From: a virus
Taxonomy: Duplodnaviria > Caudoviricetes
IMG/VR virus record: IMGVR_UViG_3300031994_000006
Span: 96,001 to 160,000 of that record
Strand: one strand, 5' to 3'
DNA length: 64,000 nt
The notes under the pieces were generated by a model. It was not told the DNA's origin. It was given only the letters and a program-made list of their open reading frames with translations, and did not search any database. The position numbers and the translations under genes are program-made. Positions 62,573-64,000 of this stretch are shown here, in pieces. Within the stretch, counting starts at the first letter, position 1. Every line of letters begins with the position of its first letter.

Positions 62573-62595
62573 TTCCGTAATGTGAGCGAATGCTG

Positions 62596-62653
62596 AATCC
62601 TGCAGATAAACGCTGCAGGATTTTTCTGTTTCGGGGAAATCCGCTATCTTTGC
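62596..62653 (+). promoter_or_regulatory. Terminator/promoter cassette copy 6
   Basis: AATCCTGCAG-ATAAACG-CTGCAGGATT, 22 nt, TATCTTTGC. Confidence 0.8.
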
Positions 62654-62704: not shown

Positions 62705-63064
62705 ATGTCACGCACATTCAAGAAGAACATCCGCTGCTTCGTATGCTGCGGCAGCAATACGGAGTATTACAGGGCACGCCGCCGCAAGGTACGCCGCCGC
62801 TGTAATCATCAGCTTCGTACCCTTATGGCGAACCGCCTCCCCGAGGACGTCGACGACCTCTGGACCGATCCCTGCCTGCCGAAGGAGGATCAGTGGGACG
62901 AGCCTACTGACGGCCACTGGCATGAGAACCTGGATACTCTTAAGATGAATATCCGCATCTACGGACCCAAGGGCCTCTACTATGCCGACATGAAGCAGTT
63001 CAAGTACTACCTCAAGCCCCGTGTAAGCAGGTTTAAGGAAAAGATTTGCATTTTTTTGCATTAA
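62705..63064 (+). CDS. Basic Arg-rich hypothetical protein heading the tRNA region
   Basis: MSRTFKK...RARRRKVRRR. Confidence 0.7.
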   Translation: MSRTFKKNIRCFVCCGSNTEYYRARRRKVRRRCNHQLRTLMANRLPEDVDDLWTDPCLPKEDQWDEPTDGHWHENLDTLKMNIRIYGPKGLYYADMKQFKYYLKPRVSRFKEKICIFLH

Positions 63065-63121
63065 AACGGATTTTTTGGGAAAGTCCGTGAATATATAAAA
63101 TGAATTCAATCTGACAAAGGT

Positions 63122-63235
63122 ATGATTTTCGCAATAACAAATATACGTCCGGTGAACGTCTACGGTAATGATGACCGCAGGCGCGAAGGTACGTATGCAG
63201 AGGCCGGAAGGCCCGAGGGTTATACGGAAATATAA
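63122..63235 (+). CDS. Putative 37-aa leader peptide (attenuator)
   Basis: MIFAITNIRPVNVYGNDDRRREGTYAEAGRPEGYTEI, TAA TGA; immediately followed by the antiterminator strand. Confidence 0.5.
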   Translation: MIFAITNIRPVNVYGNDDRRREGTYAEAGRPEGYTEI

Positions 63236-63310
63236 TGATCCTGTCAGAAATTCAAGTTCAGATGAGTGCTGATTAGAGATTTCGGAATTATTGAATGATA
63301 TGAACGGATG

Positions 63311-63344
63311 ACAGGATTACCGGAGACGGGAATCCTGTTTTTTT
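63311..63344 (+). terminator. Intrinsic terminator upstream of the tRNA cluster, probably conditional
   Basis: ACAGGATT-A-CCG-GAGA-CGG-G-AATCCTGT followed by a T-run; the 5' arm can instead pair with 63236-63246. Confidence 0.75.
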
Positions 63345-63356
63345 ATGCCTGACGAT

Positions 63357-63385
63357 GTGACCGGCCGTAAACCGGAGCGTTTTAT
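63357..63385 (+). promoter_or_regulatory. ECF-like promoter GTGACC-N15-CGTTTTAT
   Basis: Matches the recurrent motif; lies between the terminator and boxA. Confidence 0.55.
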
Positions 63386-63451: not shown

Positions 63452-63467
63452 GTTCTTTGACATATTG
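63452..63467 (+). promoter_or_regulatory. rrn-type boxA antitermination element
   Basis: GTTCTTTGACATATTG fits the boxA consensus GYTCTTTRA(C/A)A. Confidence 0.65.
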
Positions 63468-63509
63468 ATACATGATATAGCAAGGGTGCGGATTCGTCCG
63501 CACCTGTCT

Positions 63510-63584
63510 GGGGGATTAGCTCAGCCTGGTTAGAGCGCCTGCATGGCATGCAGGAGGTCACGGGTCCGAATCCCGTATCCTCCA
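63510..63584 (+). tRNA. tRNA-Ala(GGC), no encoded CCA
   Basis: Acceptor GGGGGAT/ATCCTCC with G3:U70, D-arm GCTC/GAGC, anticodon arm CCTGC-ATGGCAT-GCAGG, T-arm ACGGG-TCCGAAT-CCCGT. Confidence 0.92.
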
Positions 63585-63597
63585 CACTATTTTAATT

Positions 63598-63691
63598 GCC
63601 GAGATAACGGCGTTGGTCTGTAAAACCAATCTGCTTTAACAAATTGTCGTAGTGGACTCGCAGTAAGCAGGTTCGAATCCTGCTCTCGGCA
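63598..63691 (+). tRNA. Atypical D-armless tRNA-Tyr(GTA)-like RNA
   Basis: Perfect acceptor stem GCCGAGA/TCTCGGC + A, anticodon arm TTGGT-CTGTAAA-ACCAA, T-arm GCAGG-TTCGAAT-CCTGC; only 8 nt where the D-arm should be; 37-nt variable region. Confidence 0.7.
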
Positions 63692-63703
63692 CATTTATCT
63701 TAA

Positions 63704-63942
63704 CAGAGCCTCCGTAAGCCGAGGAGAAAGGGCGTTGCAGAGCGGTCACCGGGACCTGTCATGAGTTCCGCCCGCCGATGACGCAGCCCGAATGCGGTGA
63801 AGTCCGATATACCGCATACCGTTGGCCGGCTGGGAATCGAAGGTGACGGCACGGAAGGGCGGACCTCCTGCCTGCAGGCACTGAGTTAGGGACACAGATT
63901 CCGGGATGTCGGGAACACGGTCAAGGTAACGGACAGGCTCTG
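63704..63942 (+). ncRNA. Candidate structured ncRNA of unknown family (~240 nt)
   Basis: Six nested helices found by eye; no ORF in the track; directly downstream of the tRNAs. Confidence 0.55.
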
Positions 63943-64000
63943 AACCATAACAGTATGACTGCTCTAATCCGGCGGACGCGCCGGTGGTAATGAGGCGCCC

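Follow-up and report, generated by a model that had tools for sequence, protein, structure and literature searches.

Why phages carry tRNA genes has been an open question for decades, with codon compensation set against the replacement of destroyed host tRNAs (PMC10264068). In the phage described here, a short open reading frame (ORF) and an intrinsic terminator stand at the head of a long tRNA region, which raises the question of whether translation of the ORF decides if the tRNA genes are transcribed, and what is sensed. The locus is probably a transcription attenuator of the leader-peptide type, sensing how readily the tRNAs under its own control decode. An earlier note on this DNA had proposed a ribosome-controlled switch before the tRNA operon; the core of that proposal was supported by conservation, shuffled sequences and folding, whereas its non-specific sensing and its two promoter assignments were not.

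The window, the 64,000-nt stretch of DNA that was analysed, corresponds to positions 96001-160000 of a 207,794-nt virus record, and a 443,820-nt contig carries the same proteins as this record. The sequencing runs that best match the window DNA are from sheep and goat gut (runs with small shares were left out of the habitat claims). The repeated promoter cassettes of the genome contain a -7 box of the Bacteroidota type, and the exonuclease adjoining the locus shows ~43% identity to that of Prevotella Lak phages. Because of these boxes and the Lak-like exonuclease, the phage appears to be a Lak-related jumbo phage, and its host is probably a member of the Bacteroidota. Three promoter motif classes occur in the genome (G000): the host-type cassette, an ATATATA-type box and a T4-late-like GATAAATA box, the last of which lies ~25-30 nt upstream of many genes. 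One sigma70-region-2 gene is present on the minus strand (genome 772-978).

The tRNA region (genome 159510-178682) contains 41 tRNAs identified by ARAGORN and a tmRNA, with the putative attenuator at its head. Array 1 (genome 159510-168209) extends past the window end and includes tRNAs for Ala, Tyr, Gly, Thr(TGT/CGT), Asp, Asn, Arg(ACG/CCT/CCG), Glu, Pro and Val, together with CAT tRNAs, one of which is a probable Ile2. Array 2 (genome 173889-178682) includes tRNAs for Phe, Ile(GAT), Lys, Gln, His, Trp, Met, Cys, Leu, Ser, Arg(TCT) and Thr(GGT). The phage-encoded tmRNA (L001:13978-14424) lies between the two arrays. A 234-aa A+T-rich gene without a Pfam hit, which may be a mobile endonuclease, is inserted in array 1 (L001:11938-12642 = genome 166938-167642), and a promoter-like box with a boxA and no leader is found 3' of it, at genome 167642.

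Anatomy and predicted folding of the leader

The features of the locus are as follows, in window coordinates.

62595-62653, + strand: cassette 6, a repeated early cassette with a hairpin and a Bacteroidota-type -7 box (context only)
62705-63064, + strand: 119-aa gene, no Pfam hit, not part of the switch
63090-63099, + strand: ATATATA-type promoter-like box, with the 36 nt leading to the start codon identical in the relative L046
63110-63116, + strand: tentative protector strand (segment 1), which may pair with 63242-63248 if the leader is untranslated
63122-63235, + strand: leader ORF of 37 codons with an ATG start and a TAA stop
63236-63246, + strand: antiterminator 5' strand, directly 3' of the leader stop codon
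63247-63308, + strand: variable spacer enclosed by the antiterminator helix
63309-63319, + strand: shared strand, serving as antiterminator 3' strand and in the terminator 5' arm
63311-63344, + strand: intrinsic terminator with a stem, a GNRA-capped inner hairpin and U7 (-16.9 kcal/mol predicted)
63452-63463, + strand: boxA-like element ahead of the first tRNA, a putative rrn-type antitermination signal
63510-63585, + strand: tRNA-Ala(GGC), the first array-1 gene (ARAGORN, Rfam)
63598-63691, + strand: tRNA-Tyr(GTA) of atypical shape, its D-arm shortened and its variable region long (Rfam, 39.6 bits)
63699-63946, possibly to L001:5150, + strand: unclassified ORF-free RNA downstream of the terminator

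The 37-codon ORF ending with TAA at 63235 and the 11-bp pairing of 63236-63246 with 63309-63319, which includes one G:U pair, were found as the earlier note had described them. An overlapping ORF (63168-63272) was rejected as the leader, its stop being shifted in L046. The antiterminator duplex has a z-score of -4.9, none of 200 dinucleotide shuffles being as good, and the domain that it encloses folds at -22.8 kcal/mol. In the terminator, 63311-63318 and 63331-63338 form a stem of 8 bp, inside which lies a 3-bp hairpin capped by a GNRA loop, and a tract of seven U (63338-63344) follows; a simple terminator scan overlooks it because of its internal loop. The antiterminator and the terminator cannot coexist, because both use the eight bases 63311-63318, in agreement with the mutual exclusion claimed earlier.

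A ribosome-dependent switch between the two helices was predicted for the window leader. The model assumed a ribosome footprint reaching +12, counted from the P site, and folded the RNA 3' of the ribosome up to the start of the terminator 3' arm. The antiterminator then held the terminator 5' arm with P=1.0 for a ribosome at least two codons before the stop and with P=0.37 for one at the stop; the latter value was 0.09 in L046. At equilibrium the full-length RNA prefers the terminator (P 0.73-0.91) even with no ribosome in the way, so that the decision of the switch must be kinetic. The distance between the stop and the shared strand is 74 nt, compared with 24-50 nt in most relatives, and to bridge this gap the ribosome would have to linger, to be followed by another, or to pass its role to a protector helix. 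A candidate for the last is the 63110-63116/63242-63248 (1:2) helix, which forms with P=0.97 in nascent RNA at 63250 and is displaced by the antiterminator at 63320, so that the outcome without a ribosome is ambiguous; segment 1 of L242 differs by one A>G change that retains a G:U pair. The untranslated leader is predicted to fold into a long stem that buries its own start codon.

The ATATATA-type box is the probable promoter of the leader; such boxes lie 20-45 nt upstream of most of the 39 leaders collected from relatives and also before several other genes of this genome. The early cassette, present in ~9 copies in the genome, is absent beside the leader in L046, L240 and L241. Cassette 6, earlier taken as the promoter that feeds the tRNA operon, is not required, relatives having the leader without the cassette or the 119-aa gene, and it may add read-through transcription in this strain. 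An ECF-like promoter at 63357, also proposed earlier, found no support: its full motif occurs once in the genome, and recurrence before other genes together with conservation in relatives was not found, the site being kept in L046 and its segment replaced in L240 next to an intact leader and terminator. The segment 63345-63450 is G+C-rich with short hairpins and shows one G-C to A-U compensatory change in L046. Further copies of the boxA-like element stand before tRNA runs of this genome, and many relatives have one behind a terminator. Among the first genes of array 1, the tRNA-Ala(GGC) is cleanly missing in several strains (63473-63595), and the atypical tRNA-Tyr, which has almost no D-arm, is the only tRNA-Tyr of the array; L240 has a conventional tRNA-Tyr at this place.

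Codon content of the leaders and the tRNA arrays

The leader contains 25 distinct codons, including ATA three times, AGG twice and Tyr codons three times, as counted before. The accompanying statement that no single amino acid is enriched is true and also incomplete, since the codons mirror the downstream tRNA set. The ORF is without C, H, K, L, Q, S and W (seven amino acids), and the array-1 tRNAs read 34 of the 36 codons after Met, against a background of ~0.6 taken from a codon set that includes shadow ORFs (p=6e-6). This match was equalled by none of 4,746 36-codon windows of long ORFs and attained by no other among 889 short ORFs. The codons at leader positions 2-3 belong to array 2, not array 1. 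For array 1, the leader samples ~11 amino acids and 23 codon types.

Directly upstream of array 2 lies a second leader.

L058:3628-3873 (genome 173628-173873): second leader of 38 codons with its own terminator

The second leader is composed of array-2 codons except for its last seven, and the table of leaders by array-exclusive codons, [[32,2],[7,23]], gives a Fisher p of 3e-9. Amino acids with tRNAs in both arrays are mostly encoded in each leader by the codons of its own array (leader 1: ATA, CGY and ACR; leader 2: ATT, AGA and ACC), and leader and array agree at the isoacceptor level for Ile, Arg and Thr. The second leader also shows a his-like relay, in which the end of the ORF pairs with a middle strand that, if free, captures the antiterminator strand ~50 nt past the stop.

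A pipeline built on fixed rules, which looks for a tRNA sub-array, the terminator upstream of it and then the first short ORF with an AUG start, gave 39 leader units from rumen, gut and environmental relatives; the leaders were picked by terminator quality and first AUG with composition visible, so that selection was not fully blind. Six related jumbo phages, including Lak-type Prevotella phages, contain 16 leaders, each of which matches its own array. In the genomes with two to four arrays, the true pairing of leaders and arrays ranks first in 6/6, jointly 1 of 6,912, the genomes being related and thus not fully independent draws. At the extremes, an array with only Thr and Ser tRNAs is preceded by a Ser/Thr-rich leader, and a pair of tRNA-His genes by one rich in His. 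Where gut phages have a single undivided array, the leaders are 58-61 codons long and hold nearly all 20 amino acids (L156:13133-13309, L157:10632-10817). Both leaders of the Lak-type record G006 occur in 15/15 GenBank Lak genomes, and their frames are kept between Lak-A1 and Lak-B7. For one array of G004 and a few arrays that are truncated, the pipeline found no leader. Other features were noted in some of these loci: CTA-anticodon (amber-reading) tRNAs lie inside leader-gated arrays (L077 and L235, records G001 and G009), and many environmental phages have a conserved ~60-aa gene between the attenuator terminator and the first tRNA (L063:6221-6403 and relatives).

The earlier note had read the leader as a general translation-stress sensor. 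With a sensor of that kind, slow translation of any sort would open the terminator, whichever codons the leader holds. Such a sensor would accommodate the 25 different codons without a tandem run, the modelled stalls that free the antiterminator anywhere up to two codons before the stop and the long leaders of the undivided-array phages, and a general slowdown would indeed trigger the switch too. However, the codons partition by array within and across genomes, down to the isoacceptors, and separate leaders for separate arrays would be pointless if sensing were non-specific. A purely general sensor is accordingly very improbable, and sensing of the controlled tRNA set is preferred.

Conservation of the unit and expression downstream

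Close relatives are represented by L046, the exonuclease of which is 93% identical to that of the window phage, and by L240-L242. The leader in these four has a 3-nt in-frame deletion, a TAA>TAG change of the stop at the same position, two synonymous changes and one conservative change, and the ORF is highly conserved at the DNA level (107/114 nt). Homologous leaders differ in length in six comparisons, each time by a multiple of 3. In L046, the antiterminator strand is identical at 9/10 positions, the sole change converting G:U to A:U, and the terminator keeps its stem unchanged and a GNRA loop. The spacer is identical at only 30/65 positions (46%), although the pairing strands on both sides are kept, and it is also replaced in a bovine gut run. 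Upstream of the leader, 63086-63121 is identical at 36/36 positions in L046 and the DNA beyond at 35/46, and the 119-aa gene is replaced by a 340-aa gene or missing in relatives. Leader frame, stop position and both pairing strands are kept in the close relatives, which are not independent and show few true double compensatory changes. The conserved unit is the box, leader, antiterminator and terminator, because these stay where the flanking gene and cassette 6 vary.

A ribosome-dependent switch was predicted for 26/31 leaders, compared with 13/91 ordinary gene-end terminators from the same loci (p=3e-12), under a perfect-stem terminator rule that leaves bulged terminators, including that of the window, unscored. 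In 19 environmental leaders, the partner of the terminator arm is found within the last eight codons, 4-24 nt ahead of the stop, and in L026, L034 and L115 this partner strand changes together with the terminator arm. The environmental antiterminator strands were left unaligned by MAFFT, and the pairs were therefore read from per-sequence folds without a formal covariation score. The antiterminators of L047, L055 and L053 were not individually significant against dinucleotide shuffles. Exact DNA patterns for the leader or the terminator gave zero matches in viral contigs, blastn of the region against GenBank phages gave only tRNA matches, and an alignment-based search with the leader recovered only these same families. 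The leaders of different families have no common sequence, sharing only the frame, the stop geometry and the codon set.

In a sheep gut metatranscriptome, two contigs match the RNA at 63699-63946 with 0 mismatches at a depth of ~1,000-1,770, about 400-fold deeper than the leader contig of the same metatranscriptome (63043-63353, depth 4.5). The leader contig is an assembled sequence that does not show strand, ends or RNA origin, and for this reason it was not used as evidence of termination. Expression downstream of the terminator does take place in vivo, as the exact-match RNA at a depth of >1,000 shows, and stems either from read-through or from an unmapped promoter. The downstream RNA is conserved in L046, has a folding z-score of 0.23 over 451 nt and has no match in Rfam or the phage database.

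This depth, the dominance of the terminator at equilibrium and the internal promoter-like box and boxA without a leader at genome 167642 could suggest that a constitutive terminator simply ends a small-protein gene, with the tRNAs transcribed from a separate downstream promoter and the complementarity being incidental. That reading leaves unexplained the codon match, the conserved antiterminator strand beside a diverged spacer and the contrast with ordinary gene-end terminators, and the segment 63345-63450 is replaced in L240; it is very unlikely. Equally hard to credit is antitermination driven by a phage protein, a small RNA or a ligand acting on a structured leader, with the ORF incidental or a mere timer: the stem burying the start codon and the 107/114-nt conservation could reflect RNA structure, but no riboswitch or T-box match was found in Rfam, leader indels keep the frame, and leaders of different families agree in frame, stop geometry and codon set without any common sequence. 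The attenuator controlled by leader translation is thus the preferred reading.

Proposed mechanism and known attenuators

Anatomy, conservation, codon matching and folding logic were computed; translation, coupling, read-through and the natural trigger are what we infer in the following scheme. RNA polymerase would start just upstream of the leader, and a ribosome would translate the 37 codons. With plentiful tRNAs for Ala, Tyr, Gly, Thr, Asp, Asn, Ile2, Arg, Glu, Pro and Val, the ribosome would reach the stop and cover 63236-63242, so that no antiterminator forms, the terminator folds and transcription ends at ~63344. If any of those tRNAs were scarce, the ribosome would lag inside the ORF, and 63236-63246 would capture 63309-63319 before synthesis of the terminator 3' arm, allowing the polymerase to continue through the boxA into array 1. 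The new tRNAs would speed decoding of the leader and restore termination, a negative feedback, and the second leader would exert the same control on the complementary array. The natural trigger may be tRNA cleavage by host defence, tRNA decay in infection or high demand. Amino-acid starvation or a general slowdown would, in the model, also open the switch; tRNA cleavage by host defences or tRNA decay fits as a trigger, because extra tRNA helps only when tRNA itself limits.

In the pheL attenuator, slow passage of the ribosome over the control codons leaves the antiterminator strand free (PMC3082878), and the trpL, hisL, pheL, thrL and leuL attenuators have, like the window locus, a short leader ORF and an exclusive antiterminator and terminator. 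These amino-acid operon attenuators control enzymes, whereas the window attenuator would control phage tRNA genes; unlike trpL/hisL-type leaders, the window leader is without a tandem run of one amino acid, and its product itself would relieve the stall. The computable structural features of leader-peptide attenuators are present in the locus as far as modelled: a short ORF in the 5' leader of the operon, the frame and stop of which stay in place in relatives, control codons that correspond to what the regulated genes do (34/36), a conserved predicted intrinsic terminator (stem and U7) between leader and regulated genes, an antiterminator helix exclusive with it, and a block of the antiterminator by a modelled ribosome at the stop that an upstream ribosome does not exert (0.37 vs 1.0). 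Tandem codons for one to three amino acids before biosynthetic or synthetase genes are absent, the leader having 25 codon types and tRNA targets. Control codons covering half the code and tRNA genes as targets set the locus apart from the classical amino-acid operon class.

One leader senses several (two or three) amino acids in the ilvGMEDA and thr attenuators, and the E. coli pheST synthetase attenuator regulates a component of translation via charged tRNA supply. The window leader would instead sense half the genetic code, and it differs from ilvGMEDA and pheST in its isoacceptor-level match to co-transcribed tRNA genes and in the paired leaders that split the code. The T-box binds uncharged tRNA directly, without translation; like the window locus, it is a tRNA-dependent terminator/antiterminator switch. 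Rfam gave no hit at E<=5 and none at the gathering score over 63100-63350, which places the region in neither the T-box nor another known cis-regulator family, and a DUF2693 hit was rejected as far below threshold and reflecting the boxA and the tRNA.

The closest functional parallel is the Anabaena trn operon (L-array), a long tRNA operon that is silent in normal growth and induced by translational stress, in which the DNA-binding repressor TrcR acts at initiation (PMC8421152, PMC10272220). Unlike the window leader, it is repressor-controlled without codon matching, and attenuation or leaders are nowhere mentioned in PMC8421152. Phage tRNAs counter tRNA-cleaving defences in the case of the tRNA-rich region of T5 (PMC11555353), as also hypothesized in PMC10264068, and the need for phage tRNAs when host tRNAs are lost is a likely biological reason shared with the window system. 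The expression of the T5 tRNAs is ascribed to a strong promoter, with no attenuator or leader mentioned (PMC11555353), unlike in the window. No description of leader attenuators before tRNA arrays was found in the published literature searched, most subscription journals lying outside the search.

The phage probably makes array-1 tRNAs only when ribosomes run short of them. It is more likely than not, with less confidence than for the attenuator itself, that Lak-related jumbo phages possess a modular, self-correcting tRNA supply, in which each array is gated by a leader sampling exactly its isoacceptors, so that loss of particular tRNAs (e.g., to host anticodon nucleases) is detected and the matching block is switched on. 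A switch that opens only on slow decoding of the codons of its own array implies on-demand tRNA replacement, which becomes directly testable with a 250-nt reporter. The leaders help to assign ambiguous or degenerate phage tRNAs, such as Ile2 vs Met and the odd tRNA-Tyr, and could act as in-vivo sensors of tRNA-targeting defences in Bacteroidota. The finding would extend ribosome-mediated attenuation to tRNA genes and to viruses.
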